A stretch of DNA of 64,000 bases from Thermoanaerobaculia bacterium (lineage in GTDB: Bacteria; Acidobacteriota; Thermoanaerobaculia; Multivoradales; UBA5704). Location of the stretch: positions 1,286 to 65,285 of the forward strand of contig DATMZM010000208.1 in the NCBI GenBank assembly GCA_035607445.1, read 5' to 3'. Position numbers and translations under genes: made by a program. The number at the start of each line of letters is the position of its first letter. The stretch's first letter is position 1. Below the pieces are notes generated by a model that ran no database searches, was not told where the DNA came from, and saw nothing but the letters and a program-made list of their open reading frames with translations. Of the stretch, positions 1-62,600 are shown in pieces.

Positions 1-42251
<42,251 letters not shown>

Positions 42252-42255
<4 letters not shown>

Positions 42256-45200
42256 GCGTGGACGAACTAGCGAGCACCGGCTCGCTCTTCGACGAACAGC
42301 TGGCACTCTATGAGCAGCTGCTCGCGGAGGAAGGTATCGAAGCGCCCGAGAGCGAGAGCATTCCGCTTCGCCCGGCCGGCGAGGCCACGCCGCTTTCGTT
42401 TGCGCAAGCACGCCTCTGGTTTCTCGACCGATGGCAGCCGGGAAGTTTCAATTACAACGTCTACACCGCCTATCGGTTGGCCATCGCGATTTCGCCGTGT
42501 CTCCTGGCGGCGAGCTTGCGAGAGGTCGTCGGGCGGCACGAGGCCTTACGGACGACGTTTGCCGAAATCGACGGTCGACCGGTCCAGCTCGTGAATCCGG
42601 ACCTCGCAGCGCCGCTCGCGGTGGTCGAGCTCTCCTCACTGCCCGAAGCGAGGCGAGAGGCGGAGGCTCAGCGCCTGGCGACCGTGGAGGCGAGATGTCC
42701 CTTCGATCTCGGCCGCGGGCCGCTCCTACGCGTCACGCTCGTCCAGCTCGGCGGCAGCCTCTCGATTCTGTTTGCCGTAATGCATCACATCGTCTCGGAC
42801 GGTTGGTCGATGGGCGTTTTGATGCGGGAGATCGTCACGCTCTACCGTGCGTTCGCGGCGGGCTGGCCCTCGCCATTGCCGCCGCAGCCGATTCAATTCG
42901 GAGATTTCGCGGCTTGGCAGCGCCGTCGCCTCTCCGGCGAGCATCTCGAGGCCGAGATCGCGTGGTGGCGCGAGCGTCTCGCAGGTGCGCCGACCGTACT
43001 CGAGCTGCCGACCGATCGCCCGCGGCCGCCGTTGCAGAGCTTTCGGGGCGCCGTCCGCTACATCACGCTGCCGGTCGACTTGGTCTCACCGTTGCGGGCT
43101 CTCGGTCGAGAGGAGGGAGCGACCCTGTTCATGGTCCTCCTCGCCGGCTTGGCAATCCTCCTCGAGCATGCGACGGGCCAAGACGATCTTCTCGTCGGTT
43201 CGCCAATTGCGAACCGCAACCGGCCTGAGCTCGAAACCGTCATTGGATTCTTCGTCAACATGCTTGTGCTTCGAGTCGATCTCGCCGGCCGGCCGAGCTT
43301 CCGCGAGCTCGCCCGCCGCCAGCGTGAGGCGACCTACAGCGCCTACGATCACCAGGACATTCCGTTCGAAAAATTGGTCGAGGAGCTGAAGCCGGAGCGC
43401 GACCTGTCCCGCTCGCCGCTCGCTCAGGTTCTGTTCACTCTCCAGAATCTTTCCGCACTCTCGCGTGGCGGCGGTGGTGGCGACGACGCCGATGCCATCG
43501 CATTGTTACCGATCTCGAATGGCACCGCGAAGTTCGATCTCCTGATTGCCCTATCGGAAGTGGAGGGAGAAGCGGTAGGAGCGATCGAGTACAGCGTCGA
43601 TCTCTTCGACGCCGCGACGATCGACCGCTTTGCCACCAACTGGCAGATCCTGCTCGAGGGATTGATCCGCGAGCCGGATCGGCCTGCGGCAGAGATACCT
43701 TGCTTGACCGAGGCCGAGAGCCGAGCCCTCGCCTCGTGGGGCGCTCCACGCTTCCGCGCGCCGGCTTTTTGTCTCCACGATGGCTTCGCGGAGCAGGCAG
43801 CGAAGCGGCCGGATGCCGTTGCGATTTCCCTCGGAGCGGAGATCCTGACTTACGGCGAGCTTGCGGCTCGTTCGAGCGCTCTGGCGCTCTACCTCACCTC
43901 GCTCGGCGTCGAGCCCGGTGACCTCGTCGGGCTCTGCTTCGAGCGGTCGATCGAGATGGTCGTCGCGATTCTCGGAGCCTTGAAGGCCGGTGCGGCGTAC
44001 GTGCCCCTCGACCCGCACTATCCGCAGGAAAGACGCGAGCTTCTCGTTCAGGACAGTGGGGTTCGGGTCGTGCTCGCCCATGCGGGATTGGCCGAGAGTC
44101 TGCCGTCGCGCGGCGCACGCATGGTCACCCTCGACGAGGTTCGGTCCGGCTCCCAGCGTCGAGCAAGCATGCCTCTGGCGCAGGTCAGTCCGGAGTTTCC
44201 CGCTTACGTGATCTATACGTCCGGCTCGACGGGGAAACCCAAGGGTGTCACCGTGACGCATGCGAACGTCGCGCGTCTGTTCGCAGCGACGGACGAGTGG
44301 TTCGGCTTCGGCGAGAGGGACGTTTGGACGCTCTTTCATTCCTACGCCTTCGACTTTTCGGTCTGGGAGCTGTGGGGCGCTCTGCTCTATGGCGGGCGCC
44401 TGGTGATCGTGCCGTATTGGACGAGCCGTACCGCCGAGGAATTTCACGACCTTGTGGCGAATGAGGGGGTCACGATACTCAATCAGACTCCGTCCGCCTT
44501 CCGCCAGTTTGTCCGGGTGGACGAAGAGCGCCCTTGTGCCCTGCTCGCCTTGCGCTCGGTGGTGTTCGGTGGCGAGGCGCTCGATCTTGCGAGCCTCGGC
44601 CACTGGTTCGACAGACGAAGGGCGTCGAGCCCGCGCTTGATCAACATGTACGGCATCACAGAGACGACGGTGCACGTGACCTACCGCGAGTTGGCACCGG
44701 CGGACGTTCACCCCTGGGTGGGCACGCCGATCGGTGTCGGGATCGGCGACCTGACCGTGCGCGTGCTCGATCGGCGAGGTGAGAACACGGGGATCGGCAT
44801 CCCCGGCGAGCTTTCTATCGGCGGAGCGGGCGTGGCCAGAGGTTACCTCGGACGTCCGGAGCTGACGGCGGAGAAGTTCGTGCCCGATCCCTGGGGGGAG
44901 GCGGGCTCGCGCCGCTACCGGTCGGGCGATCTTGGGCGTTTCCGGGGCGATGGCGAGATCGAATACCTCGGGCGGATCGATCATCAGGTGAAGGTGCGCG
45001 GCTTCCGGATCGAGCTCGGGGAGATCGAATCGGCGCTCGCGAGCCATCCGGGAGTGCGCGAAGCGGTCGTCGTTTTACGAGGCGAGACGCTCGTCGGGTA
45101 TTGGGTTGGGCGCCAGGGAGAAGATCCGCCGGGGCGTGCGCTGCGCGAATTTCTTCTCGACCGCCTTCCCGAGCACATGGTGCCAGGCCGCTTGATGGAG

Positions 45201-48200
45201 CTGCCCGAGTTGCCGCTCACCGTGCATGGCAAGATCGATCGCCGTGCGCTGCCGGCGCCCGAAGGGCGTGACGCGGGAGTCGGCTACGAGGCGCCGCGAA
45301 CCGCGGTCGAAGAGGTGCTGGCTGGCGTTTGGAGCCGCGTGCTCGAAGTCGAGGTCGTGGGGGTCGGCGACAACTTCTTCGCGCTCGGCGGCGACTCGAT
45401 TCGCAGCCTGCAGGTTCTCTCGCTTGCACGGGAGCGGGGCTTGTCCCTTTCGGTCCAAGACATCTTCCGTCATCAGACGATCGCCGAGCTGGCCGTGCAG
45501 GCAGTCGGCACGGACGAAGTTGCGGCCGAGTCGGATGGCGGACCGTTCAGCCTGGTCTCCGACGAAGACCGGCGACTGCTTTCCGTACGCATTGCGGATG
45601 CGGAGGATGCCTATCCGCTCGCGCGGTTGCAAGCGGGCATGTTGCTCCATATGGCGCTCTCGCCGGACGAGCCTCCCTACCACAACGTCGATAGCTGGCG
45701 GCTGCGCGCCCGGCTGCAGCCCTGGGCTTTGCGGCGCGCTGCTCGGGAGGTGGCGGCGCGGCACCCGGCGATGCGCACTTCGTTCCATCTCGAAGGCTTC
45801 AGCGAGCCGCTCCAAGTCGTTCATCGCGAGGCGGCGTTGCCGATTTGGATCGCGGACTTGGGCGGATTGCCTCCCGCTTTTCGAGAGGGCGAGATCGCGC
45901 GCTATTCCCGCGGCGAGAAGGGGCATCTCTTCGAGCTCGGCCAATCGCCGCAATTGCGGTTCGTCATCCATCGGATCGATGGCGACCTGTTTCAGATGAC
46001 GATGACCGAGAACCATGCCATTTTCGATGGCTGGAGCCTGCACGCGACCCTACGGGAAATGTTCGGCCGGGCCTTCGATCTCCAGCGCGGCGACGAAACC
46101 CCCTTGCCCCCTCCTCCGCGTCTGACCTATCGGGAATTCGTGCGGCTCGAGCGCGAGATCGTCGCGTCGAAGGTAGCGGAGCGTTTTTGGGAAGACCAGC
46201 TTTCCGGGGCCTCCGTTCTTCTCCTGCCACGCCTGCGGACGGCACAAGAGGAAGGCGGTCCGCGCGTTCACGCGCAGGTCTTCCCGGCGCCCCCGGATCT
46301 CTCCGAGAGCTTGGAGCGCCTCGCCCTCGAAGTCGCCGTGCCCATCAAGTCCGTGATGTTGGCGGCCCACTTGCGCGCGCTCTCCGTCCTTACCGGCGCG
46401 ACGGATGTGATCACCGGCACCGTCTTCAACGGCAGACCCGAAGCGCCCGATGGAGCGGAAGTGAGAGGGTTGTTCCTCAACACCCTGCCGCTACGCGTCC
46501 AGCTGGGGGGCGGCACCTTCAGGCAGCTGATTCGAACGGCGTTCGAGGCGGAGCGGGAGCTTCTGCCAACCCGCCGTTTGCCGCTCGCAGAGCTGCAGAG
46601 GCGCCAGGGTGGCGGCGCCCTGTTCGAGGTTTTGTTCAATTACATCCACTTTCATGTCGTCGAGAGCTTGCTGCGATCAGGTGAGATTGAGGTTCTCGGT
46701 TTCGAAGGGCGCGAGGGAACGAACTATCCGCTGCACGTGGTCTGCACGCCCGGGCATCTCGACCGTGGGCTCAAGGTGACCCTCGAATACGATGCCGAGA
46801 TCTTCGGACGCCAGCAGATCGAGGCGTTCGGCGGTACGTACCTGCGAGTCCTTCAGGCGATGGCCGACGCCCCGGATGCGCGCTACGACGAGACCTCCTT
46901 GCTCTCTGAAGAGGAACGGCGACAGCTCCTCGTCCATCTGAACGCGACGGAACGAGCCTGGTCTCGCGAAGCGAAGGGGACCGTGCCCGCAGCGATCGCC
47001 GAGCGATCGCAGCGCGCTTCCGGCCGCGTGGCCGTCGTCTGCGGTGGAGAGGAGCTGACCTATGGGCAGCTCGTGCAGCGGGCGGATCGCCTGGCGTGGC
47101 TCCTCCGGCAGCTCGGTGCTGGCCGGGAGGTGCTCGTCGGGATTGCCCTCGAGCGGTCCCTCGCCCTCGCCGTCGGCACGCTCGGAGTACTCGCCACAGG
47201 CGCCGCCTACGTTCCGCTCGATCCCTCCTACCCAGCGGACCGGCTCAGCTTCATGGCCGAGGATTCGGGCGTCGCGGTATTGGTGACGGACGAGGCGATC
47301 GTCGACTGGCCCGGCTTCGCGGGCGAAGTCGTGCGGCTCACGACGGACGGTGTCCTCGTAACTTCCGCAGCCTGTGAGGGCGATTTATCTCTCGCGAGCA
47401 GCGCTCTGCCCGACAATCTGGCCTACGTCATCTACACCTCGGGTTCGACGGGGCGGCCCAAAGGCGTGCAGGTCTCCCATGCTGCGTTGTGGAATTTCCT
47501 TCAGTCGATGCTCGAGCGTCCCGGTTTTGTCGAGGACGATGTCCTCGTCGCGGTGACTTCGCTCTCGTTCGACATCGCCGGACTGGAACTCTATGGTCCG
47601 TTGCTCGCTGGCGCCCGCGTGGTGGTGGCGACCCGCGAGGAGACGACCGACGGCAAGCGCCTCGCCGCATTGATCGAAGCGAGCGGCGCGACGGTGATGC
47701 AGGCGACTCCCGCGGGGTGGCGTCTCCTCGTCGAGTCCGGTTGGCTCGGCTCACCGCGGCTCAAGGCCCTTTGCGGCGGTGAGGCGCTGGCTCCAGCGCT
47801 CGCCGCGACCCTCCTCGATCGAGTCGGTGAGCTGTGGAACCTCTATGGGCCCACCGAGACCACGATCTGGTCGACCATCGAACAAATCTCGAAGGCAGGG
47901 GACTTCACGATCGGTCTGCCCATCGCCAATACGCGAGTCTTCGTGGCCGATGCGTTCGGAAGGCTCGCGCCGGTCGGCGTTCCGGGCGAGCTTTGGATCG
48001 GCGGCACGGGTCTCGCGCGTGGGTACAAAGGGCGCCCCGACCTCACCGCCGAACGGTTCATTCCAGACGGTTTGAGTCCGAGTCCATCCGAGGTGGGCCC
48101 AGGCAGTGACGGTGGGCGGTTGTACAGGACAGGCGATCTCGCTCGCGTTCTGCCGGATGGGCGCATCGAATGCCTGGGCCGCCTCGACTCTCAAGTGAAG

Positions 48201-51200
48201 GTGAGAGGTTACCGAATCGAGCTCGGCGAGATCGAAGCGGTGCTCGGTGCGCATCCGGGAGTTGCCGCCGCGGCCGTCATCGCTTGGGATCTCGCGAGCG
48301 GCGACCGGCAGCTCGCGGCCTACGTCGTGCCCAACGGAGTTGAAGTTCCAGGGCACTTGGAGCTCGGCAGTTTTCTCCGCGAGCGCTTGCCGGACTACAT
48401 GGTGCCCGTCGTTTTCGTCGCGCTCGAGCGATTGCCTTTGACGCCCAATGGCAAGGTCGATCGCAAGGCTCTTCCCCGGCCGGCGGCGCGAGTGACCGCG
48501 GATTTCGTGGCACCGCGTACGCCCACCGAGGAAGTGCTTGCCGGTTTGTGGGCGGACGTGCTCAAGATCGATGGGGTCGGCGCTCACGATCGCTTCTTCG
48601 ACCTCGGCGGCCACTCTCTGCTCGCGACTCGGCTGGCTTCCCGCGTGCGCGAATCCTTCGGTGTCGAGCTGCCGCTACGCGTGCTGTTCGACAGCCCAAC
48701 TTTGGAGGGCTTCGCGGCGGCGATCGATACGGTTCTCGGGAACCCGATCGCCGCATTGGCACCGCCCCTCGTCAGGGTATCGAGGAACGGCGATCCACCG
48801 CTCTCGTTCGCCCAGGAACGCCTCTGGTTTCTCGACCGGCTTCAGCCCGGCTCCCCGGCGTACAACGTTCCTGCGGCAGTCCGCCTGACGGGCGACCTCG
48901 GCGTCAAGGCGCTGGCCGCGGCGCTCGACGAGGTCGTGCGACGCCACGAGTCATTGCGAACGACGTTTCGCATCGATCTGGGCCGCCCGGTCCAGGTGAT
49001 CGCTCCGGAGACCCAGTTCGCGCTTCGCCGGATCGACCTTGCCGGCCTGGATCTCGTTCGAACGGAAGGACACCTCAGCGATCTCGCCGCCCGCGAAGCG
49101 CTCCAACCGTTCGACCTTGCGACCGGCCCGCTCGTTCGAGCGACGCTGGTCTCGCTCGAGCGCGGCGAGCATGCGCTCCTTCTGACTCTCCATCACATCG
49201 TGTCGGACGCCTGGTCGATGGGAATTCTCGTCGCGGAAGTGGCACGGCTCTACGCATCGTTCGCGAGGGGCTTGCCGTCTGAGCTTCCGGCTCTTCCGGT
49301 TCAATACGCCGACTATGCCGTCTGGCAGCGAGAATGGCTCCGCGGCGATCCGCTCGCCGAACAGCTCGCCTATTGGCGTCGCATCCTCGAGGACGCACCG
49401 GTCTTGGTTTTGCCGGCCGACCGCCCGCGCGCGCCGCTCCAGAGTTACCGCGGAGCAAGCCGGCCACTCGGGATCGGCCGGCCGCTCGCCGAGCCGTTGC
49501 GCGCGCTCGGCCGCCAGCGCGGATCGACCCTCTTCATGACCTTGTTCGCCGCGTTCCAGGCGCTGCTGCATCGGCTCACCGGACAGGACGATCTCGTCGT
49601 CGGCTCGACGATTGCGGGACGGACGCACCGAGAGCTCGAGCCTCTGGTCGGTTTCTTCGTCAACGCTCTGGCGCTTCGCACCGACCTCGCGGGCGATCCG
49701 CCTTTCGATGCCCTCGTGGCCAGCGTACGGGAAACCGCTCTCGGCGCCTTTGCGCATCAGGACTTGCCGTTCGAGAAGCTGGTCGCGGAGATCCAGCCGG
49801 AGCGTGACCTCTCTCGCTCACCGATTTTCCAGGTGCTCTTTCAACTCCAGAACGCTCCCGCAGCTGCCCTGCCGAATGCCGGCATCGCGACTGGCGCGTC
49901 GGGGGTCGAGATCCGGCCGATGGGACAGGAAAGCCAGAGCGCGAAGTTCGATCTGGTGGTGACCGCCATGGATCGGGGCGGCGTGCTGTCCGGCGATTGG
50001 AAATTCAACACGGATCTCTTCGAGCCGGCGACGATCGAAAGGATGGCCGCGCGCTTCGAAAGGCTTCTGACCGCTATCGTCGCCGAGCCGGAGCGGCGAC
50101 TCTCGGAATTGCCGCTCTTGGGTGAGGAGGAGCGCGAGCAGCTCCTGGCGGAGTGGGGCGTGGCGACGGCCGTGTTCGAAACCTTCTGTCTGCACGAGCG
50201 ATTCTCCGCGCAAGCGGCCCTGCGGCCGGAGGCGATCGCCGTCAGCCTGGGTGATTCGGTGCTCACCTACGGTGCGCTCGAGCGGCAGGCGAACGCTCTG
50301 GCGAGCCGTCTCGAGAGCCTGGGCGTCCTTCCGGGCGATTTAATTGGGCTGTGCTTCGAGCGGTCGCTCGAGATGGTGGTGGCGGTCGTAGGTACTCTCA
50401 AAGCCAGTGCGGCGTACGTGCCTCTCGATCCTCAGTACCCGCAGGAGAGGCTCGCTTTCCTTCTCGAAGACAGCGGAGTCCAGATCCTTCTGACTCAGAC
50501 CTCATTGCTCGGTGCTCTCCCATCGCAGGGCGCCCAGGTGGTGACGCTCGACGACGGACGCCGCAAAGGCCTGGGCCAGGGAGGTGCAGGAGCGTCTGCT
50601 CCGCGCTCGTCAGCGTCGGAGCTTCCGGCGTACGTGATCTACACGTCGGGCTCGACGGGCCAGCCGAAGGGTATGGTCGTTACGCATGCGAACGCATCGC
50701 GGCTCTTCGTGGCGACGTCGCCGTGGTTCGGGTTTGGGCCCGAGGACGTGTGGACTCTGTTCCACTCGATGGCCTTCGACTTCTCGGTCTGGGAGCTGTG
50801 GGGTCCGCTCTTGTCCGGAGGCCGGTTGGTCGTGGTTCCGTACTGGTTGAGCCGTTCTCCCGCGGGCTTCTTCGACCTTCTGGCCGAGGAGCGGGTGACG
50901 GTGTTGAGCCAGACGCCGTCGGCATTCCGGCAACTGATCTGGGTGGACGCAGCGGCGGACCCCGCGGCTCTCGCATTGCGCGAAGTGGTCTTTGGAGGCG
51001 AGGCGTTGGACCTCGGCAGCTTGGCTCCCTGGTTCGCACGGCACGGCGATCGGCATCCTCGTCTGGTCAACATGTACGGGATCACCGAGACGACGGTGCA
51101 CGTGACGTACCGGCCTCTGCTCGCTGGGGACGTGGCGCGAGGGAGCGTCGTGGGGCAGGCGATTCCGGACCTGTCGGTGATCGTGATGGATCTGCAAAAC

Positions 51201-54200
51201 GGTCTGGAGCCGGCTCCGATCGGGGCTCCGGGGGAGATCTTCGTCGGTGGCGCCGGATTGGCGTTGGGCTACCTGGGCCGCCCGGAGTTGACGGCCGCAC
51301 GGTTCGTGCCCGACCCGTTCAGCGATAGGGGCGGCGAGCGCCTGTACCGTTCGGGAGATCGCGCGCGCCGCTTGGCGGATGGGGATTTGGAGTACCTGGG
51401 CCGGATCGATCATCAGGTCAAGATCCGGGGTTTCCGGATCGAGCTCGGCGAGATCGAGGCGGCGATCCTTGGCTTGCCGGGCGTGCGAGAGTGCGTGGTG
51501 CTAGCGCGCGCGGAGGCGAACGGTGAGACACGTCTGGTTGCGTATGCGGTAGGCGACGCGGTGCCCTCGCTCGCGGAGCTGCGGGCGGACCTGGCGGCGA
51601 GGTTGCCGGAGTACATGGTGCCGTCTGCGCTGGTCGAGCTGGCGCAATTGCCTTTGACGGCGCACGGCAAGTTGGACCGGCGGGCCTTGCCGGCTCCGGA
51701 GTGGACGCGTCCGGAGTCGGCGGAATCGGTGGCGCCGCGGACGGCTCTCGAGCGTTATTTGGCAGATCGCTGGCGCGAGGTGCTGGGGATCGAGCGCGTG
51801 GGCGCGGAGGGCGACTTCTTCGAGCTCGGAGGCAATTCGATCAGCGGCGCGGTCCTGATCAACCGCTTGCAGCAGGAGCTCGGCGAGATCGTACAGGTGG
51901 TGGTGATCTTCGATCGATCGCGGTTGTCGGATCTCGCGCGGTATCTCGAAGCGGAGCATCCGGCGGGCGTTGCGCGGCTGGTGGGCGCGGTGGGTGAGAC
52001 GCAGGAGCGATCGTCGTCGTCGCGGGTGGATGAAGCGAAGGTGGCTCTGCTCAAATCGCTCGTGCGTCCGCTCGCGCCGGCGAGCGGAGGGGAGTCGGTC
52101 AAGAATCCGCCGGTTCTGTTCGTGCTGTCGCCGCCGCGATCGGGGACGACGCTGTTGCGCGTGATGCTGGGCGGTCATCCGCGCCTCTTCGCGCCGCCGG
52201 AGCTGGAGCTGCTGTCGTATCGGACGATGTCGGAGCGCCGGGAGGCGTTTTCGGGTCGTGACAGCTTCTGGCTCGAGGGGGTCTTGCGCGCGGTGATGGA
52301 GCTGCGCGGGTGCGAGGTCGAGACGGCGCGCGAATTCGTCGAGTCGTGCGAGAGGGCGGGGATGACGACGCTGGCCTTCTACGGCGTGCTGGCTTCCGAG
52401 CTGGGCGACCGGATGCTGGTCGACAAGACGCCGTCGTACGCGCTCGATCCGGCGATCCTCCGTCGAGGAGAAGAGGAATTCGCGGGGGCTCGGTATCTGC
52501 ATCTGGTGCGGCATCCGGGCGGGATGGTGCGCTCATTCGAAGAGGCGAAGCTGGATCAGGTGTTCTTCCGCCGGGAGCACCCGTTCGAGCGCCGGGAGCT
52601 GGCGGAGCTGATCTGGGACGTGAGCCAGGAAAACATCCTGGAGCTCTTGGCGGACGTTCCTCGAGAGCGGCAGCATCGGGTGGTGTTCGAGGATCTGGTG
52701 CGGGACCCGGAAGGGGTGCTGCGGGGCGTGTGCGCGTGGATGGGTCTCGAGTACGCGCCGTCGATGGCAGCGCCGTACGAAGAGGTCTCGTCGCGGCGAA
52801 TGACGGACGGCCCGCACGCGGCGTCGCGAATGTTGGGGGACGTGAAGTTCCTCGGCCACGGAGGAGTCAAGGCCGAGGTGGCGGAAGGCTGGCGGGAGGA
52901 CCTCGCGGAGGGAGACCTCGGCGCGCCGACGTGGGACCTCGCGGAGAGGCTCGGCTACTCTCGGAGGGTCGAGAGCCGGGAGCGGTGGGAGGCGATCCCT
53001 GCCGGATTGAGCGTTGTAGAAGGAGAAGCCCCGCTGTCGTTCGCGCAGGAGCGATTGTGGTTCCTGGATCAGCTGACGCCGGGCAGCGCGGTGTACAACG
53101 TGCCGCTTGCCCTGCGTCTGAAGGGTCACCTCGACGTCGCGGCGATGCGGGTTGCCCTGACGGGAGTGGTCGCCCGGCACGCGGTGCTGCGCACAACCTT
53201 CGGCGCGGTGAATAGCCGGGCGGTGCAGCGGACCGGCGGCATCGAGCCGTTCCCCTTGCATTGCGCGGACCTGAGGTTTCTGCCGGTTCGGGAGCGCGAG
53301 GGGGAGGCGCGGCGGTTGGCGACGGCGGAGGCGCGGCGACCGTTCGACTTGGCGCGGGGTCCGGTCGCGCGGGGCCTGGTGGTCCGGTTGGCGGCGGAGG
53401 AGCAGGCGGCGGTCTTGACGCTACACCACATCGTCTCAGACGGCTGGTCCTTGGGCATCCTGGTCCAGGAGCTGGTCGCTCTCTATGGCGCGGCGCTCGC
53501 GCGGGAAGCGGCGGAGCTGGCGCCTCTCGCGGTGCAGTACACGGACTATGCGGCGTGGCAGCGGACGTGGCTCGCCGGTGAGCGTCTGGAGCGGGAGCTC
53601 GGCTACTGGACGGATCGGCTGGCGGGCGCGTCGCGGCTCGCTCTGCCGACCGATCGCCCGCGGCCGCCCGTGCAAACGTTCCGCGGCGCGAGCCGTGGGG
53701 TGCGCCTGGCTCCGGACCTCGCGAAGCGCTTGGAAGAGGAATGCCGCCGCGAGGGCGCGACGGCGTTCATGGGTCTCGCGGCGGGATTCCAGGCTCTGCT
53801 GCACCGGTGGAGCGGCCAGGACGACGTGCTCGTGGGCACACCGATCGCGGGCCGCACGCGCGCCGAGGTCGAGGATCTGATCGGGCTGTTCGTCAACACG
53901 CTGGTGTTGCGAACCGGATTCGACGACGGCCCGAGCTATCGCGAGCTGCTCGGACGGGTACGGGCCGGGGCGGTGGCTGCCTACGCGCATCAGGAGGTGC
54001 CGTTCGAAAAGGTGGTCGAAGCTCTCGCGCCGTCGCGGGATCTGTCGCGCTCGCCGATCTTCGAGGTGATGTTCGCGGTGCAGAACGCGCCGGTCGTGGC
54101 GTTCGAGCTGCCGGGTCTACAGCTCGCGCCCTGGTCTCTCGGCGAGCCGCTGTCGAAGTTCGATCTGACGTTGACGCTGTCGCCGGAGACTCTGGCGGGT

Positions 54201-57200
54201 GGGTTCGAGTACAACCGCGATCTGTTCGATGCGGCGACGATCAGCCGGCTGGGTTTGCAGCTCGAACGGCTGCTCGGGGGCTTGCTCGCGCACCCGGAGG
54301 TGCCGGTGGACGAGTTGGACCTATGGAGCGCGGCGGAGCGGCATCAGGTCGAAGTCGAATGGAACGCGCGGCCGTGGAGCTACGCGGGGGAGATCTGCCT
54401 GCACGAGAGGTTCGAGCGGCAGGTGGACCGGGATCCCGCCCGCACGGCGGTAGTGCCAGGTTTGGCGGGGGAGGACCCCTGGAGCTACGAGGAGCTCGAA
54501 GCCTGCTCGAATCGAGTCGCGCACTACCTGCGGCGGCACGGCATGACCGCGGGCGATCGGGTGGGCTTGTGCGGGGAGCGTTCGCCGCGTCTGGTCGCGA
54601 GCCTGTTGGGGATCTTGAAGGCGGGTTGCTCGTACGTGCCGCTCGATGCCGAGTATCCGCCGGAGCGCTTGGCGTTTTTGGTGGCGGACTCCGGCGTGCG
54701 GACGGTCATCGGCCAGCAGGCCTTCCGGGAGCGGATTGCTCTGCCGGAGCGAGTGCGGTGGCTGTCTCTGGAAGAGGAGTGGGAAGGGATCGGTCGCGAG
54801 AGCGCTTTACGTCCGCTGTGGAGTTTGGGACCGGGGTCCGCGGCGTACGCGATCTATACGTCGGGCTCGACGGGGGTGCCGAAGGGAGTGGTGGTGCCGC
54901 ACCGGGCGATCGCGAACCGGGTGCTGTGGATGCAGGAGGCGTATCCGCTGACCGTCGAAGACCGTGTTCTGCAGAAAACTCCCTGGAGCTTCGACGCGTC
55001 GATCTGGGAGCTGTTTCTGCCGCTTTCGGTGGGCGCGGAGCTGGTCCTGGCGGAGCCGGGTGGTCACCGGGACAGCGGGTATTTGGTCCGAGCCGTCACG
55101 GAATATCAGATCACGGTGTTGCAGCTGGTGCCGTCGATGCTGCAGGCGTTTCTCGAAGAGCCGAGCGCCTCGAGCTGCACGAGCTTGCGGTATCTGTTTG
55201 CGGGAGGCGAAGCGCTCTCGGGCGCTGTCGCTCAGCGGCTGGCGAGCCGTCTGCCGGCGGTGGAGCTGGTGAACCTCTATGGTCCGACGGAAGCGGCGAT
55301 CGACGTGGCGTCGAAGCCTCGCGTGGGATCCGAGACGCGGGCGGTGGTGCCTCTCGGTCGGCCGATCTCTTGCGTGCACCTGGCGGTGATGGATCGGATA
55401 GGGCGGGCGGTGCCGATCGGCGTCGCGGGGGAGCTGTGGATCGGCGGGGTGAACCTGGCCTTCGGCTACCAGGGGCGCGCGGACTTGACGGCGGAGCGGT
55501 TCGTTGCGGCTCCCTGGTCGAGCGGGGGCGAGCGGGCGTATCGAACGGGAGATCTGGCGCGTTGGCTGCCGGGAGGCGAGCTCGAGTACCTGGGCCGGAT
55601 CGATACGCAGGTGAAGGTACGGGGAGTGCGGATCGAGCTGGGTGAGATCGAGGCGGCTCTGTCGGCGCATCCGGGGGTGGCGCAGACGGCGGTGGCGGTT
55701 CGGGGAGCGGACAGCGGCCGGCGCCTGGTGGGGTATTGGGTGGGCCGGCAGGATCTGCGCGTGACGGCGGAGGAGCTGCGCGCGCACGTGGCGCGGCGCC
55801 TGCCGGAGGCGATGGTGCCGGGCGTGCTGATGGAGCTCGAGGCGCTGCCGGTTCTGCCGAACGGCAAGGTGGATCGCAGCGCTCTGCCGGAGCCGGAGGC
55901 GATCGCCGGAGGAGGCGAAGCGCCGCGCACAGTGGTGGAAGAGGTGCTGGCGGCGATCTGGTCGGAGGTGCTGGGTCTCGAGCAGGTGGGAGTGGAGTCG
56001 AGCTTCTTCGATCTCGGGGGCCATTCGCTGCTGGCGACGCGGGTGGTCTCGCGGATTCGGCAGGCGCTCGGGGTGGATCTGCCGGTCCGGTCGGTGTTCG
56101 AGCGTCCGACGATCGCGGGTCTGGCGAGCGAAATCGGGCGCCGGAGAGACGCGGGGTCGAAGACGCCGCCTTTGCTTCCGGTCGAGCGGAGAGGTGCGCT
56201 GCCGGCGTCGTTTGCTCAGTCGCGGCTGTGGTTTTTGCATCAGCTCGAGCCGGAGAGCGTGGCCTACCACCTACCTCTGGCGCTGCGGCTCGAAGGCGAC
56301 TTGAACGTCGGTGCCCTGGCCGGAGCCTTGCTGGAGATCGTCCGCCGGCACGAGGTGTTGCGGACGAGATATCCGGAGCATCCGGAGCGGGACGGCGAGC
56401 CGATGCAGGAGGTGCTGCCGGCCGGGTGGGTGAAGCTGCCGCTCGTCGATTTCGGGCAGCTGCCGATGGTCGCACGCGATGCGGAGTCGCGGCGGGTAGC
56501 CGGCGCGGAGGCGGCGCGGCCCTTCGATCTCGAGCGGGGTCCGCTGTTTCGGAGTGCCTTGTTGCGTCTGGGCGTGAACGATCATCTCGGCCTCCTGACG
56601 CAACACCACATCGTCTCGGACGCCTGGTCGCGCGGCATTCTGATTCGCGAGCTCTCGGCGCTTTACGGTGCCGCTCTCGCCGGCCGCCCGTCGCCGCTCG
56701 TCGAGCTACCGGTCCAGTACGCGGACTACGCAGTCTGGCAGAGATCCTGGCTCACGGGAGAGGTGCTAGAAGCGCAGCTCGGCTTCTGGCGCGAACGGCT
56801 CGCCGGGGTGCCCCAGGCGCTCGACCTGCCGACCGACCGGCCGCGGCCGCCGGTGCAGAGCTTCAGGGGCGCCTCGCGGCCGGTCACGATTGCGGCCGCG
56901 ACGGCGAACGGCCTCAAGGCTCTCGCGAGGCGCGAGAGCGCGTCGCCGTTTATGGCCTTTCTCGCCGGCTTCCAGGCTCTCCTCTGTCGCGCGGCGGCTC
57001 GATCTGAGGTGCTCGTCGGCTCGCCGATCGCGAACCGTGAGCGCCTCGAAGTGGAGGGACTGATCGGCTTTTTCACCAACACGCTGGTGCTGCGCGGAGG
57101 AATCGAGAGCGGCGAGGGCGGAACCGGTCTCCGCGATCTCGTCGGCCGTGCACGCGAAACCGTGCTCGGCACCTCGGTGCACCAGGATCTGCCCTTCGAG

Positions 57201-59513
57201 AAACTCGTCGAGGAGTTGAAGCCCGAGCGCGACGCATCGCGCACGCCCTTGTTCCAGGTTCTGTTCACTCTCGTCCCGGCGCCGGAATCAATCGCCCTCT
57301 CGGGTCTCGAGGTGCGGCCGTTCGGTGCTGCGGGGACGACGGCGAAATTCGATTTGTCGCTGGCGCTGACCGACGCGCCGAACGGTGTGACGGGTGCCTT
57401 CGAGTACGCGACGGCGCTCTTCGACCCGGCGACGGTCGAGCGGTTTGGACGGCACTTTGGCGTGTTGCTCGCGGCGGCGGTCGCCGACCCCGAAGCGGAT
57501 CTGCGGATGCTCCCTCTGCTCGCTCCGGCGGAGAGGCACCAGGTTGCGCTTGCTTGGAACGATACCGGCCGCTCGCTCGAAACGGCGCGAACGATCCACG
57601 AGGCGATCGAGGCGCAAGTCGACCGGACGCCGGATGCGATCGCGCTCCGATTCGAGGGCGAGCAGCTGAGCTACGCGGAGCTGGATCGACGGTCAAACCG
57701 GTTGGCTCACCATCTGCTCCGACGGGGCGTCTCGCGCGAGAGATTAGTCGGCCTTGCGCTCGAGCGCTCGCTCGATCTGCTCGTCGCTCAGATCGCGACC
57801 TGGAAAGCCGGCGGGGGGTACGTGCCGATCGATCCAAGTTATCCGGCCGAGCGGCTCGCGGCGATGCTCGCGGACGCCCGGGTATCTGCGTTGATCACGC
57901 GCTCGACGCTCGTCGATCGGCTTCCGGTAAAGCCCCCGGATGATCGGAAGCCCGAGGCTCCGATCGTTTGGCTCGACCGCGACGCTGCGGCGATCTCGGC
58001 GGAGCGCGAGGTGCGACCCGGGCTCGAGGTGCTACCGGAGCAGCTGGCGTACGCGATCTTCACGTCAGGATCGACCGGCCGCCCGAAAGGAGCGATGAAC
58101 GAGCATCGAGCCGTGCTCAATCGGCTGCTCTGGGGCGAGACGACATTCGGGTTCGATGCTCGCGATCGATTCATCCAAAAGACGCCGTTCAGTTTCGATG
58201 TCTCGGTGTTCGAGCTCTTCGGCCCCCTGTTGTGTGGCGCGCGGCTGGCGCTCGCGGTGCCGGGTGGGCATCAGGATACATCGTACCTGGCTCGGTTGTT
58301 GGCGGAGGAAGGGGCGACGACGGTGCATTTCGTGCCGTCGATGCTGCGGACATTCCTCGACGAGGCGGAGCCTTCGACCCTGCGGAGTCTGCGTCGGGTG
58401 ATGGCGAGCGGAGAGGCTCTGCCAGCCGCGCTTTCGGATCGTTTCTTTGCACGGCTTTGCCCGGGTGGCGCCAAGAGCGCGAGCGATGCCATCGCAACGA
58501 TCGAGCTGCACAATCTGTACGGACCGACGGAAGCCGCGGTCGAGGTGACACACCAACCGTGCCGTCCGGGAGCCCGTGCGATGTCGATCGGGCGACCGGT
58601 GGCGAATACCCGGATTCACCTGCTGGACCGGGAGATGGCGCCCGTACCGATCGGGCACGCAGGCCAGCTCGCCATCGGCGGAGGACAGGTCGGGCGCGGC
58701 TATCTCGATCGCCCGGAGTTGACGGCGGAGCGTTTCGTGCCGGATCCATTCGGAGGGCCGGGGAGTCGGCTCTACTTGAGCGGCGATCTCGCGCGGCATC
58801 GCGCCGAGGGTTCGATCGAGTTTCTGGGCCGCACCGACCAGCAAGTCAAAGTGCGCGGCTTCCGTATCGAGCTCGAAGAAATCGAGTCGGCCTTGACCGA
58901 GCATCCGAAGATCCAACAGGCCGCGGTGGTGGCGAGCGGCGACGACGAGCAGCGTCGCCTCGTCGCTTACGTGGCGTTCGTCGGCGAGCAGGTGCCGCTC
59001 GCGAAGATGCGCGAGCATCTCCGGCGCCGGCTGCCGGAATACATGATTCCGTCGCTGTTTCTGGAGCTCAAGTCGCTGCCGTTGACGGCGAGCGGCAAAG
59101 TGGATCGGCGGGCGCTACCCGCGCCGTCGCGATTGCAGCAGCAGCTCGAGAAGACCTACGTCGCCCCGCGCAACGCGGTCGAAGAGGTGCTCGCGGGGAT
59201 CTGGGCCGACGTGCTTGGCATCGGACGAGTCGGCATCGAAGACGATTTCTTCGATCTTGGTGGCCACTCCCTGCTCGCCACTCGCGCGGTCTCGCGGGTG
59301 CGCAAGATCTTCCGCGTCGATCTACCGCTGCGGAGCTTCTTCGGCGGGACGACCGTGGCGCGGCTCGGGCAGGTTCTTCTCGACCATGAAGCACAGCCCG
59401 GGCGGACCGAGAAGGTCGCGCGGCTCTTCCGCAACGTCGAGTCCATGAGCGAAGAGCGGATGCGCGAGTTGCTCGCGAAGAAGCGGAGCGATCCGGAACC
59501 CGGCGAAAAATGA
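42252..59513 (+). CDS. Nonribosomal peptide synthetase with 5 modules: C-A(Thr)-T, C*(variant)-A(Gly)-T, C-A(Thr)-T-ST, C-A(Gln)-T, C-A(Ser)-T. Has an N-terminal docking head and a C-terminal docking tail.
   Basis: The 5753-aa ORF has a TTG start at 42252 (alternative in-frame GTG at 42258) overlapping the gene 1 stop as TTGA. A GAAAGGA RBS lies at 42239-42245, 6 nt upstream. The N-terminus MSVDELASTGSLFDEQLALYEQLLAEEG leads straight into C1 motif [15 protein letters not shown]. A3 cores are near 44204, 47424, 50630, 54843 and 58048. The stop is at 59511-59513. Confidence 0.95.
42380..45510 (+). other. Gene 2 module 1: C-A(Thr, DFWNVGMVHK)-T(GGDS, E-domain-type PCP signature).
   Basis: [25 protein letters not shown] and [10 protein letters not shown]. 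A domain carries [92 protein letters not shown] and TVHGKIDRRALP. PCP motif [24 protein letters not shown]. Confidence 0.85.
45545..46960 (+). other. Variant condensation-family domain C* (gene 2 module 2 C position). C3 motif reads NHAIFDGWS (first His replaced by Asn) and the N-terminal motif reads [14 protein letters not shown].
   Basis: [36 protein letters not shown]...[22 protein letters not shown]...[21 protein letters not shown]...GLFLNTLPLRVQL...[13 protein letters not shown]. It shows no sequence similarity to the 16 standard '[10 protein letters not shown]...HHIVSD(G/A)WS' C domains in the window. About 55-60% aa identity to the gene 3 copy. Confidence 0.7.
46961..48740 (+). other. 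Gene 2 module 2: A(Gly, DILQLGLIWK)-T.
   Basis: A domain carries [74 protein letters not shown] and [12 protein letters not shown]. PCP motif FFDLGGHSLLATRL. Confidence 0.8.
48785..52990 (+). other. Gene 2 module 3: C-A(Thr-like, DFWSVGMVHK)-T(GGNS)-ST.
   Basis: [26 protein letters not shown] and HHIVSDAWS. A domain carries ...[54 protein letters not shown] and TAHGKLDRRALPAP. PCP motif FFELGGNSISGAVLINRLQQ. ST domain 3 spans 52010-52990. Confidence 0.85.
52010..52990 (+). other. Embedded sulfotransferase-like (ST) domain 3, between PCP3 and C4 of gene 2.
   Basis: KNPPVLFVLSPPRSGTTLLRVMLGGHPRLFAPPELELLSYRTMSERREAFSGRDSFWLEG...LVDKTPSYALDP...YLHLVRHPGGMVRSFEEAKLDQVFF...MTDGPHAASRMLGDVKFLGHGGVKAEVAEGWRE. 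Paralogue of ST2. Confidence 0.75.
53020..56150 (+). other. Gene 2 module 4: C-A-T, predicted Gln (DAWQFGLIDK, exact Gln code).
   Basis: [25 protein letters not shown] and [9 protein letters not shown]. A domain carries [55 protein letters not shown] and LPNGKVDRSALP. PCP motif FFDLGGHSLLATRV. Confidence 0.8.
56185..59390 (+). other. Gene 2 module 5: C('AYHLP' subtype)-A-T, predicted Ser-like (DVFHMSLVEK).
   Basis: LPASFAQSRLWFLHQLEPESVAYHLPLALRLEGDLN and QHHIVSDAWS. A domain carries [42 protein letters not shown] and TASGKVDRRALP. PCP motif FFDLGGHSLLATRA. Confidence 0.8.
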
Positions 59514-59640
59514 GCGACCTCGGATCGGGCCGTAAGGCGGAGCTGTCGATGGACCGCCTGGAGCTGCTCGAGCGCATGCTCGAGGAGGAGGGTCTGTTCG
59601 ACGACGCCGTGGACTCGGCGGACGCCATCTTGCCGCGTCC
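59391..59640 (+). other. Gene 2 / gene 3 junction: C-terminal docking-like tail, ATGA overlap, and N-terminal docking-like head.
   Basis: Tail ...LLDHEAQPGRTEKVARLFRNVESMSEERMRELLAKKRSDPEPGEK*. Head [47 protein letters not shown]. Both are paralogous to the gene 1 / gene 2 junction elements. Confidence 0.6.
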
Positions 59641-62600
59641 CTCCGGCGAGCCCGCGCCCCTTTCGTTCGCGCAGGCTCGCCTCTGGTTTCTCGACCGCTG
59701 GCAGCGCGGCAGCTGGGCTTACAACTTGTTCGGAGCCCAGCGGTTCACGATCCCGATCGAGCCACGGCTCCTCGCCGCCAGCTTCAACGAGGTCGTCCGC
59801 CGCCACGAATCGCTGCGTACCACGTTCACCGAAATCGACGGGAAGCCCGTCCAGAGCGTGGCGGCACAACTTCGACTGCCACTGCGCGAGATCGATCTCG
59901 GCGTGCTGCCGCGAGCGATCGCCGACGGGGAGGAGCGGCGCGCTCTCGGCGCCTGCGCTCGGCGGACGTTCGATCTCGAGCGGGGTCCTCTCCTCGCGAC
60001 CGAGCTCCTGCGGCGAGAAGGAGCCGGCAGCGTTCTTCTCGCGACGATGCACCACATCGTGTCGGATGGCTGGTCGCTCGCCGTCCTCCTCCGGGAGGTT
60101 CTCGCGATCTATCGGTCGCTCGCACGAGGCCGAAGCCCGCGCTTGCCGCCGATCCCGATTCAATACGGGGACTACGCCGCCTGGCAGCGGCAACGGCTCT
60201 CGGGAGAACGGCTCGAGGCGGAGATCGCCTGGTGGCGCGCGCGCCTCTTCGGCGCGCCCACCCTCCTCGAGTTGCCCGCTGACCGGCCCCGGCCTGCCGC
60301 GCAGAGCTTTCGCGGCTCCGTACGGCCGATCCGGCTCGACGATCGTACGGCGGACAACCTGCAGGCCTTGGCGCAGGCGGCAGGGGCGACGCTGTTCATG
60401 GCTCTGCTCGCAGGCTTCGCGGTGCTCCTGCGCCGCTACACGGGCCAGCGGGACTTGCTGATCGGCTCGCCGATCGCGAACCGCAATCGACCCGAAGTCG
60501 AAAACCTGATCGGCTTCTTCGCCAATACCCTCGTCCTGCGGGTGCGGTTCGCGGGCGAGCCCGGCTTTCGCAACCTTCTCGCCCAAGTGCGCGACGAGAC
60601 CTTTGCGGCTTACGAGCATCAGGACATTCCGTTCGAGAAACTGGTCGAAGAACTGAGGCTCGGCCGCGATCCCTCCCGCCAGCCGCTTTGCCAAGTCGTG
60701 TTCGCGCTCCAGAACGCGCGCGCCGAGACGGAGGTGGCGAGCAACGGTCCGCGTCCGGTCGCCGAGGCGCTTCCCATCGACAACGGGAGCGCAAAATTCG
60801 ACCTCCTGCTCAGCCTCGCCGAGACCGCCCAGGGCGTGCAGGGCGGGATCGAGTACAGCTTGGACTTGTTCGACGCCGCGACGATCGACCGCATGGCGGC
60901 GCACTTGGACCGCCTGCTCGGCGCGCTCGCCCTGCGGCCCGATCGCCCGGCCATCGAAGCGCCTCTCCTCACCACGGAAGAAATGCGCCAGATCTCGGCG
61001 TGGAGCGAGCCGCGCGGCAAGGGGCGGACGTTCTCGCTGATCGAGCGATTCGCGGAGCAAGCAACGACGAGGCCCGACGCGATCGCTGTTTCTCTCGCCA
61101 GCGAGCAGATGACGTATGGAGAGCTGTTGCGCCAGGCGAACGAGCTTGCGCTCCGCCTCGCGATCCTTGGCGTCGCTCCCGGCGATCTCGTCGGCCTCTG
61201 CTTCGAACGCTCGACCGCGATGGTGGTCGCGATCCTCGGTACCTTGCAAGGCGGGGCCGCGTACGTGCCGCTCGATCCTCATTACCCGCAGGAACGATTG
61301 TCGTTCCTGCTCGAGGACAGCGGAGTGGGGATTCTCCTGACCCAAGCATCCTTGGCCGAGAGGCTGCCCGCTCATGGAGCGCGGGTCATTACGCTCGATG
61401 ACCTGCGCTCCACATGCCGGGGATCAGGAGACAGCAGCAGCCCGCCATGTCAGATCTCACCGGAGTTCCCGGCTTACGTGATCTACACTTCCGGTTCGAC
61501 GGGGAAGCCGAAAGGCGTTGTGGTGTCACATGCGAACGTTGCGCGGCTTTTCGCGGCGACGGACGCGTGGTTTTTCTTTGATGAGCGGGACGTCTGGACG
61601 CTGTTCCACTCGACCGCGTTCGACTTCTCCGTCTGGGAGCTGTGGGGCGCTCTCCTCCATGGCGGACGGCTGGTCGTCGTGCCGTACTGGACGAGCCGGA
61701 CCGCGGAGGAGTTTCACGAGTTGGTAGTGCGCGAGGGGGTGACGGTGCTCAATCAGACGCCATCGGCCTTCCGCCAGTTTGCCACTGTGGACGAAGAGCG
61801 CGCGGGAGCACCGTTTGCCCTGCGCTCGGTGGTGTTCGGTGGCGAGGCTCTCGACCTCGCGAGCCTCGGCCCGTGGTTCGACAGGCGGGGCGATGAGCGG
61901 CCGCGCTTGGTCAACATGTACGGCATTACCGAGACGACGGTCCATGTGACCCATCGCGAGCTCGCCGCCGCTGACATTCGCGGCTGGGTAGGAACGCCGA
62001 TCGGGAAGCCGATTCCGGACCTCTCCGTGCGGGTGCTCGATCCGAGAGGGCAGGTGGCCCCGATCGGTGTTCCGGGCGAGCTTTGCATCGGCGGCGCGGG
62101 CGTTGCGCTTGGGTACCTCGGCCGTCCGGCGCTGACAGCGGAGCGCTTCGTTCCCGATCCTGCAGGCGAAACGGGCGGTCGACTCTACCGCTCCGGCGAT
62201 CTCGGGCGCTTTCGGGGCGATGGAGAGATCGAATATCTCGGGCGGATCGATCATCAGATCAAACTGCACGGATTTCGGATCGAGCTCGGCGAGATCGAGG
62301 CGGCGCTCTTGAGTTGTCTAGGCGTGCGCGACGCGGTTGCGGTGCTGCGCGACGAGATGCTCATCGGCTACTGGGTCGGACCGACCGAAGGAACGTTTCC
62401 GAGCAGCGAGGAGCTCCGCAAGCACTTGCGCGACCGGCTCCCCGAGTACATGGTGCCGGGACGTTTGGTTGCGCTCGAATCGTTACCGCTCACCGCTCAC
62501 GGCAAGGTCGATCGAAAGGCATTGCCGGACGTTGCGGGGCGAGACGAGGCGGTCGGGTTCGAGCCGCCACGGAACGAAGTCGAAGAGGTGCTCGCCGCGG

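Follow-up and report, generated by a model that had tools for sequence, protein, structure and literature searches.

In a giant nonribosomal peptide synthetase (NRPS) assembly line of a Thermoanaerobaculia bacterium (Acidobacteriota; GenBank assembly GCA_035607445.1, contig DATMZM010000208.1), we found an aberrant condensation (C) domain that, by its sequence, belongs to the modified-amino-acid clade of C domains (CmodAA), also termed the dehydrating C domains (DHC). By analogy with characterized members of that clade, it likely acts as a dehydrating C domain that converts a threonine donor to dehydrobutyrine (Dhb) and then condenses it with glycine. The DNA analyzed, hereinafter the window, is a stretch of 64,000 nucleotides (positions 1,286–65,285 of the contig, forward strand) that is occupied throughout by three NRPS genes, all running along the + strand and here called open reading frames (ORFs) 1 to 3. 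The variant domain lies in the second module of ORF2, between a module with a threonine-type adenylation (A) domain and one with a glycine-type A domain, and a second copy closes the window in ORF3.

Clade membership of the variant C domain

Domain limits were mapped with hidden Markov models (HMMs) built from the domains of the window itself, and the substrate specificity (Stachelhaus) codes of the A domains were read by hand on PheA numbering and then via hmmalign. The variant domain, its motifs and the domains flanking it, including the peptidyl carrier proteins (PCPs; T in module strings), are as follows:

45570–46946, + strand: variant C domain copy 1, HMM limits in ORF2; CmodAA/dehydrating clade
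45609–45650, + strand: N-terminal motif AYPLARLQAGMLLH, a C1 motif of the D-clade type (ORF2 residues 1120–1133)
46008–46037, + strand: active-site motif ENHAIFDGWS (ORF2 residues 1253–1262; letters read from the DNA)
46347–46370, + strand: KSVMLAAH, the CmodAA-specific [K/R]SVLLAAH motif defined in PMC11342130
46569–46595, + strand: TRRLPLAEL, with the CmodAA-specific Arg-Arg pair that opens motif C6 (PMC11342130)
46623–46655, + strand: FEVLFNYIHFH, C7-equivalent block typical of the clade (ORF2 residues 1458–1468)
43662–45257, + strand: donor A domain of ORF2 module 1, predicted Thr (HMM; ORF2 residues 471–1002; code DFWNVGMVHK)
45291–45506, + strand: donor PCP of the TE type (window HMM), core FFALGGDSIRSLQV at 45375–45416 (ORF2 residues 1042–1055)
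46860–48479, + strand: acceptor A domain, predicted Gly (HMM; ORF2 residues 1537–2076; code DILQLGLIWK)
48510–48728, + strand: acceptor carrier of the GGHSL type (window HMM)

An initial annotation, made from the letters of the DNA, had drawn a variant C-family domain at 45545–46960, in good agreement with the HMM limits, and the N-terminal motif, ENHAIFDGWS, FEVLFNYIHFH and upstream PCP that it quoted are all present in the ORF2 frame. Its Thr donor and Gly acceptor are borne out by the codes DFWNVGMVHK and DILQLGLIWK. It had taken FEVLFNYIHFH for the end of the domain; the block is instead the C7 equivalent and lies about 100 residues short of the end. Its view that the domain departs from the standard C domains of the window holds far beyond chance, copy 1 scoring 147 bits against a profile of those domains versus 498–697 bits for the 16 others in ORF1 and ORF2.

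An initial homologue search returned short fragments only, at no more than 47% identity. Searches of the PDB with phmmer ranked first the C domain of McyA module 2 (8JBR; e-value 1.9 × 10–97, 330 bits), followed by AmbE-CmodAA (7R9X; 183 bits), which was deposited as 'a dehydrating condensation domain'. The next matches were C domains that follow an epimerization (E) domain or otherwise take D-configured donors (McyB-C1, PvdL-C3, TycB-C1 and SrfA-C), and structures of the L-clade (TycC-C6, LgrA and CDA-C1) scored at most 60 bits. An AlphaFold2 model of copy 1, computed from a 12-sequence alignment (mean predicted local distance difference test score 86), agreed with this at the level of the predicted fold: its top Foldseek match in the PDB was again 8jbr (e-value 10–45, 38% identity), with the D-donor C domains (hereinafter DCL) and 7r9x (rmsd 2.7) after it.

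We then compared the window domains with four profiles labeled independently of the window, built respectively from four McyA C domains plus AmbE, from post-E C domains, from E domains and from L-clade C domains of other genomes. Copy 1 scored 399 bits with the CmodAA profile, 188 with the post-E DCL, 155 with the L-clade and 14 with the E profile; for copy 2 the corresponding values were 342, 155, 119 and 17. Each of the 16 other window C domains tested scored best with the L-clade profile (472–605 bits), and reached 74–116 bits with the CmodAA profile. A neighbor-joining (NJ) tree of 110 C domains (Kimura distances, 100 bootstraps) groups the variant with Microcystis and Planktothrix McyA and with AmbE in a clade of 47 members (bootstrap 74); this clade is the sister of the post-E DCL domains, and the remaining window C domains fall in the L-clade. 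The nearest neighbor in the tree, among the matches listed from the survey described below, is a domain from a Thermoanaerobaculia metagenome-assembled genome (L001; 59% identity, bootstrap 100). Phylogenetic placement among the C subtypes and structure prediction, both of which had been proposed as checks on the initial annotation, thus agree: the former sets the domain apart from the L-L-condensing (LCL) type and joins it to McyA and AmbE, and the latter points the same way at the fold level.

The motifs likewise follow the clade. Copy 1 holds every clade feature given in PMC11342130, namely KSVMLAAH, a Thr 15 residues past its His, a conserved Glu that is probably the Glu of GRPE, a further Glu ahead of the Arg-Arg pair (AERELLPTRR, seven residues before the pair at the start of C6) and the DG of the active site. 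In that study C6 of CmodAA opens with Arg in 96% of domains, a second Arg being usual (78%); the standard C domains of the window read HQD[IL]PFEKLV where copy 1 has TRRLPLAEL. The [K/R]SVLLAAH motif was found neither in the window's standard C domains nor in McyB-C1. The N-terminal motif AYPLARLQAGMLLH is common to McyA and AmbE, McyB-C1 having the DCL form, and the McyA counterpart of FEVLFNYIHFH is FDTAFNFIHFH. In the active site ENHAIFDGWS the first His of the canonical HHxxxDG is replaced by Asn, and the second His, Asp and Gly are retained.

Other subtypes were rejected as identities for the domain. An LCL identity conflicts with the L-clade score (155 bits versus 472–605 for the window's other C domains), with the motifs, the LCL type having PLSFAQ..LW as its N-terminus and HQD.PFE at C6, and with the GGDSI rather than GGHSL carrier. 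An E domain, which would lie between a PCP and a DCL domain and have no A domain of its own, is excluded by the 14 bits with the E profile and by the A(Gly)-T that directly follows the variant. A DCL domain fed by an E domain was discarded since the window holds no E domain, the DCL domains are a sister clade only and the profile scores are 188 versus 399 bits. For dual E/C domains, which Balibar and colleagues are said to have defined in 2005 by an extra N-terminal HH[I/L]xxxxGD besides HHxxxDG, the regular expression HH[ILV]....GD, as a pattern test only, matched neither copy.

The initial annotation treated the variant as a single case, but the window holds a second copy, in ORF3, with the same upstream arrangement:

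60926–62530, + strand: donor A domain of ORF3 (HMM), predicted Thr by hand reading, with the same residues as DFWNVGMVHK
62564–62779, + strand: second GGDSI donor PCP, core FFALGGDSIRSLQV at 62648–62689
62852–64000, + strand: variant C domain copy 2, continuing past the window end (520 bits with the copy-1 HMM)

Copy 2 is 63% identical to copy 1 over 399 residues, and its motifs read AYPLARLQAGMLLH, ENHAILDGWS, KSLVLAAH, TRLYPLAVL and FEVLFNYIHFH. The single Arg at C6 in TRLYPLAVL is within what PMC11342130 allows. Its donor A domain carries the blocks FDFSVWE, VLNQTPS, VVFGGEA and VNMYGITETTVH.

Carriers, donors and the altered active site among relatives

An FFALGGDSI carrier precedes both variant copies, and GGDSI occurs in just these 2 of the 19 PCPs of the window, each directly upstream of a variant C domain (Fisher p=0.006). 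The initial annotation had read GGDSI as a mark of carriers serving E rather than C domains, a view that is out of date: E, DCL, dual C/E and dehydrating C domains are all assigned GGDSI-type carriers, and the characterized dehydrating C domains need a TE-type donor carrier with GGDSx (review PMC10880069).

A pattern scan over one genome per species retrieved at least 80 related loci, which were annotated with the same HMMs, and the specificity code was read upstream of every C domain; the counts given here and below for relatives are among the matches listed. The loci span Acidobacteriota, Cyanobacteria, Actinomycetota, Myxococcota and Chloroflexota, among others, with Microcystis and Planktothrix mcyA represented. 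The donors of variant-like and of ordinary C domains in the same loci compare as follows:

Donor code readable: variant-like 80 of 98; ordinary 84 of 125
Donor Thr: variant-like 49; ordinary 2
Donor Ser: variant-like 11; ordinary 10
Donor Asp-like: variant-like 7; ordinary 9
Other donor: variant-like 13; ordinary 63
Donor PCP GGDS[ILM]: variant-like 93 of 95; ordinary 7 of 100
Donor PCP GGDSI: variant-like 88; ordinary 0

Thr or Ser donors thus precede 60 of 80 variant-like domains versus 12 of 84 ordinary ones (Fisher p=10–15, a rough measure given that the domains are not phylogenetically independent), and across the 95 relatives a GGDS[ILM] carrier indicates almost perfectly that a dehydrating C domain lies downstream. 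The donor code of copy 1 itself reads Thr, which predicts a donor with a β-hydroxyl.

At the first His position, the 97 readable relatives have His in 67, Asn in 16, Cys in 7, Pro in 4, and Ala, Tyr and Leu in one each; the residue is hence lost in 30 of 97, of which 16 have Asn. In the subgroup with ENH, Thr or Ser is the donor in 13 of 14 cases. Given these ENH, carrier and donor patterns, the three oddities for which the initial annotation singled out the variant (its N-terminal motif, the Asn and the FEVLFNYIHFH block) are all traits of a recognizable lineage, and none is a one-off mutation. As a lineage trait, the Asn belongs to a subclade whose members are mostly acidobacterial, and it is probably a structural substitution rather than a sign of changed chemistry. 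Published CmodAA domains conserve the DG of HHxxxDG strictly and lack the first His in 7 of 50 reference domains (PMC11342130). A literature search for 'NHxxxDG' returned nothing relevant (one unrelated wax-synthase paper).

Already published are the link to a GGDSI carrier, the assignment of the YPL-type N-terminus to the D-clade and the dispensability of the first His. Modestly new are the frequency of Asn, Cys or Pro for the first His in environmental lineages (about 30% loss), the association with GGDS[ILM], near-perfect now across a larger set of 95 relatives, and the presence of two dehydrating-type modules plus three sulfotransferase (ST) domains in one giant assembly line.

Among the actinomycete loci, four from Streptomyces and Actinoplanes (L057, L074, L079 and L068) contain three or four consecutive CmodAA-like domains, with donors alternating between DFWSVGMVHK and D[NV]FHLGCTFK (a code without an assigned substrate); the alternation suggests runs of dehydro residues.

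Proposed mechanism and characterized counterparts

The mechanism that we propose builds on the clade membership, motifs, specificity codes and carrier type established above; that the donor is dehydrated at all, that this precedes condensation and that Dhb results, we infer by homology to AlbB, AmbE, LgnD and McyA. ORF2 module 1 would load L-Thr onto its TE-type GGDSI carrier, and the ordinary upstream C domain would join the growing peptide to this carrier-bound Thr. The variant C domain would then take the T13-bound peptidyl-Thr as its donor, remove the α proton and eliminate the β-hydroxyl, giving peptidyl-Dhb, which the same active site, with its second His, Asp and Gly intact, would condense with the Gly on the next carrier. 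Copy 2 in ORF3 would carry out the same chemistry at a second Thr. For annotation, both Thr positions are therefore best predicted as Dhb rather than Thr or D-Thr, a prediction that alters the expected mass, the reactivity (as a Michael acceptor) and the conformation of the product. The initial annotation had proposed that the domain does more than condense, with Thr epimerization, dehydration to Dhb or another side-chain chemistry in mind; of its candidates, dehydration to Dhb is favored by the relatives, profiles, tree, motifs and donors, and epimerization is disfavored by the 14 bits with the E profile and the missing dual E/C motif.

The closest counterpart is the C domain of McyA, which is the best sequence and fold match to copy 1 and shares with it EDAYPL..LQ.GM, KSV(L/M)LAAH, GR.E, RR.PLAEL and F(N)(F/Y)IHFH. 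It too follows a GGDSI donor PCP (L048 and L040), and locus L040 has the Planktothrix-type mcyA arrangement of a Thr code, GGDSI and then a variant-like C domain; the Planktothrix McyA genotype with a Thr-activating first A domain yields Dhb at position 7 of microcystin (PMC3827215). The McyA C domain is listed as CmodAA of the 'dehydration only' kind in the corallorazine study (PMC11342130, Table S2). However, the two are only about 38% identical by Foldseek, McyA retains both His residues (SFHHSILDGWS versus TENHAIFDGWS in the window), and it is part of a cyanobacterial hybrid of polyketide synthase and NRPS with Ala as the acceptor and an E domain behind it. The term modAA is absent from Rausch et al. 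2007 (PMC1894796), which also says nothing specific about McyA, and dehydrating C domains lie outside the coverage of the review PMC11546977.

AmbE CmodAA (7R9X), for which structure and biochemistry are both known, is the second-best solved relative and falls in the same tree clade; it has the same E-x-H context (AEHH versus TENH in the window), [K/R]S.LLAAH and the RR. It differs in dehydrating β-hydroxy-γ-methoxy-Glu and handing the product to a second carrier, with no amino-acid condensation (PMC10880069), in retaining the first His, and in having a His after GF.S (H1632) where the window domain and McyA have Asn. The proposed chemistry of Thr to Dhb on a GGDSx carrier and then condensation is that of AlbB-C2/C3 (albopeptide) and LgnD-C2 (legonmycin), likened here by their description in PMC10880069, though these belong to two- or three-module pathways of actinomycetes rather than to a giant assembly line. 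According to the same review, AlbB-C2/C3, AmbE and LgnD-C2 dehydrate the carrier-bound donor Ser or Thr first and condense later, and they cluster with the DCL and dual C/E domains, in which the first chemical step likewise takes the α proton.

The DCL domains themselves (McyB-C1, 8HLK; PvdL-C3; TycB-C1; SrfA-C) share, as a sister group, the YPL-type N-terminus and the GGDSI-type donor carrier class, but are without KSVLLAAH and the RR pair and follow E domains. The module-5 C domain of NocB (nocardicin), again likened by description, also removes water from a donor Ser bound to a GGDSI carrier (PMC10880069); it is nonetheless reported in the DCL clade rather than in CmodAA, and goes on to a β-lactam.

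Alternative explanations

Several points weigh against dehydration by the variant. The clade that unites it with McyA and AmbE has a bootstrap of just 74 in a simple NJ/Kimura tree. In AmbE, the residues that mutagenesis found relevant vary across the clade, bar the second His and the K/R (PMC10880069), so there is no catalytic signature to check off. By code, 20 of the 80 relatives with readable donors have residues other than Thr or Ser (Asp-like, Val/Ile-like and others), and clade membership alone is hence no guarantee of dehydration, unless these residues are β-hydroxylated in trans. Finally, an altered first His in published domains (Cys in FclJ and Zmn17) accompanies side-chain conjugation and not plain dehydration (PMC11342130). 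A D-clade C domain by descent that simply joins L-Thr to Gly would accommodate the quarter of relatives without an obvious donor β-hydroxyl, the lost first His and the lack of any known set of residues that would diagnose dehydration (PMC10880069). We nevertheless consider it unlikely: the donor is Thr for both window copies and Thr or Ser in 13 of 14 ENH relatives, all the published CmodAA motifs are present, and the GGDSI carrier has been retained ahead of both copies where the 17 other window PCPs differ.

Dehydration might instead be followed by further chemistry, either a conjugate addition (of the Gly amine or another nucleophile to the β carbon) or a rearrangement. Some CmodAA domains do this (those of bleomycin, zeamine, fabclavine and the pyrrolizidines), and published domains with Cys for the first His catalyze side-chain conjugation (PMC11342130). 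In the window domain, however, the second His and DG that are tied to amide formation are intact, whereas domains that add instead of forming an amide are without both His residues; the acceptor module is a regular C-A(Gly)-T placed for ordinary elongation, and the 16 ENH relatives also occupy ordinary elongation positions with varied acceptors. This reading thus appears very unlikely. Conversion of L-Thr to a D-configured residue ahead of condensation, as in a dual E/C-like domain, would fit the D-clade ancestry and the TE-type carrier, but the E-profile score of 14 bits, the absence of HH[ILV]xxxxGD from both copies and the dehydrating nature of the nearest characterized relatives make it highly improbable. 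Hardly credible, in turn, is a dead, X-domain-like scaffold left by the loss of the first His: HHxxxDG is degenerate at its first position, yet the second His, Asp and Gly are kept, exactly this variant recurs in both paralogues and in 16 relatives, and the domain sits between two loading-competent modules that no other C domain would link.

A more speculative idea, to which we attach little credence, is that the TE-N-H subclade (mostly acidobacterial, with Asn, Cys or Pro for the first His) is functionally distinct from the HH-type dehydrating domains, for instance by fixing the geometry of Dhb or coupling elimination to a side-chain addition, and acts beside ST modules of the CurM type that possibly activate other Thr residues as sulfate esters. 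If so, one giant NRPS would use two leaving-group strategies on the same amino acid.

Sulfotransferase domains in other threonine modules

Besides the dehydrating-type modules, the assembly line contains three embedded ST domains:

17662–18543, + strand: ST domain 1 (ORF1 residues 5810–6103)
34873–35757, + strand: ST domain 2 (ORF1 residues 11547–11841)
52077–52961, + strand: ST domain 3 (ORF2 residues 3276–3570)

Each sits after the PCP of a Thr-type module (codes DFWNIGMVHK and DFWSVGMVHK) and has an ordinary C domain of the L-clade behind it, an architecture that fits the suggestion in the initial annotation that the variant is a second, ST-independent way of treating Thr. Among solved structures they come closest to the activating sulfotransferases of CurM (4GBM, 211 bits) and OLS (4GOX, 195 bits), of which they are close homologues. 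An unusual core is common to the PCPs ahead of the ST domains, FFELGGNS[IV]SGAVLI (ORF1 residues 5717 and 11460; ORF2 residue 3189), and a fourth, similar PCP with GGSSITGAVLV (ORF1 residue 10376, in a Thr-type module with the code DFWSIGMVHK) has no ST behind it. The ST domains may act by sulfating Thr, or by turning its hydroxyl into an activated leaving group. No ST domain was found in the 80 related loci, and a literature search on NRPS designs with an ST in a Thr module, including the combination of sulfotransferase, dehydrobutyrine and nonribosomal, found nothing relevant; these embedded CurM-type domains are a more unusual feature of the locus than the variant C domain.

Gene and module organization

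The genes are arranged as follows:

1–234 and 235–42255, + strand: ORF1; frame 1 is open from nucleotide 1, begins in the middle of an A domain, and its stop ends at 42255
42252–59513, + strand: ORF2, 5753 residues; its start overlaps the ORF1 stop (TTGA)
59510–64000, + strand: ORF3, NRPS; its start ATG at 59510 overlaps the ORF2 stop (ATGA), and it continues past the 3′ end of the window

ORF1 has more than 14,000 codons, its 5′ part lying beyond the window edge. By the window-derived HMMs it encodes [A]-T and then twelve C-A-T modules, of which two have an extra ST after the PCP; ORF2 encodes C-A-T / Cvar-A-T / C-A-T-ST / C-A-T / C-A-T, Cvar being the variant; and ORF3 encodes C-A-T / Cvar, which reaches the window end. 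Pfam matches in ORF2 are Condensation, AMP-binding, PP-binding and Sulfotransfer_3. The assembly line exceeds 19 modules and is very large and apparently uncharacterized; neither a thioesterase or other release domain nor an E domain was found within the 64-kb window.

Standard C domains number 17 (12 in ORF1, 4 in ORF2 and 1 in ORF3) rather than the 16 first counted, and they do not all read HHIVSD(G/A)WS as had been stated: one in ORF1 (residues about 2550–3009, positions about 7882–9261) has LHHIACDDAS, that is HHxxxDD with Ala for Trp, and is the lowest-scoring standard C domain at 498 bits.

Part of the assembly line consists of duplicated module blocks. The gene tails, ORF1 residues 10455–14001 and ORF2 residues 2179–5748, are 76% identical over 3577 residues, and the head of ORF2 (residues 34–1489) is 65% identical to ORF3 over 1462 residues. 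Given these large duplications, the predicted peptide would repeat a unit that reads approximately Thr(ST)-Gln-(Ser-like)-Dhb-Gly. Among the A domains, several codes at ORF1 residues 838, 4063, 7629 and 13338 and ORF2 residue 5076 match no recognized common substrate; such codes are DVENIGAITK, DIEDLGAITK, DPRHLVLRAK and DVFHMSLVEK (Ser-like, occurring twice). The G+C content drops steadily from 0.76 to about 0.65 within ORF1 (positions 1–28000) and stays there over 28000–64000, and the GC skew is higher in several blocks (34–40 kb and 50–56 kb); one possible explanation of this pattern is that the modules are of mosaic or recombinant origin.

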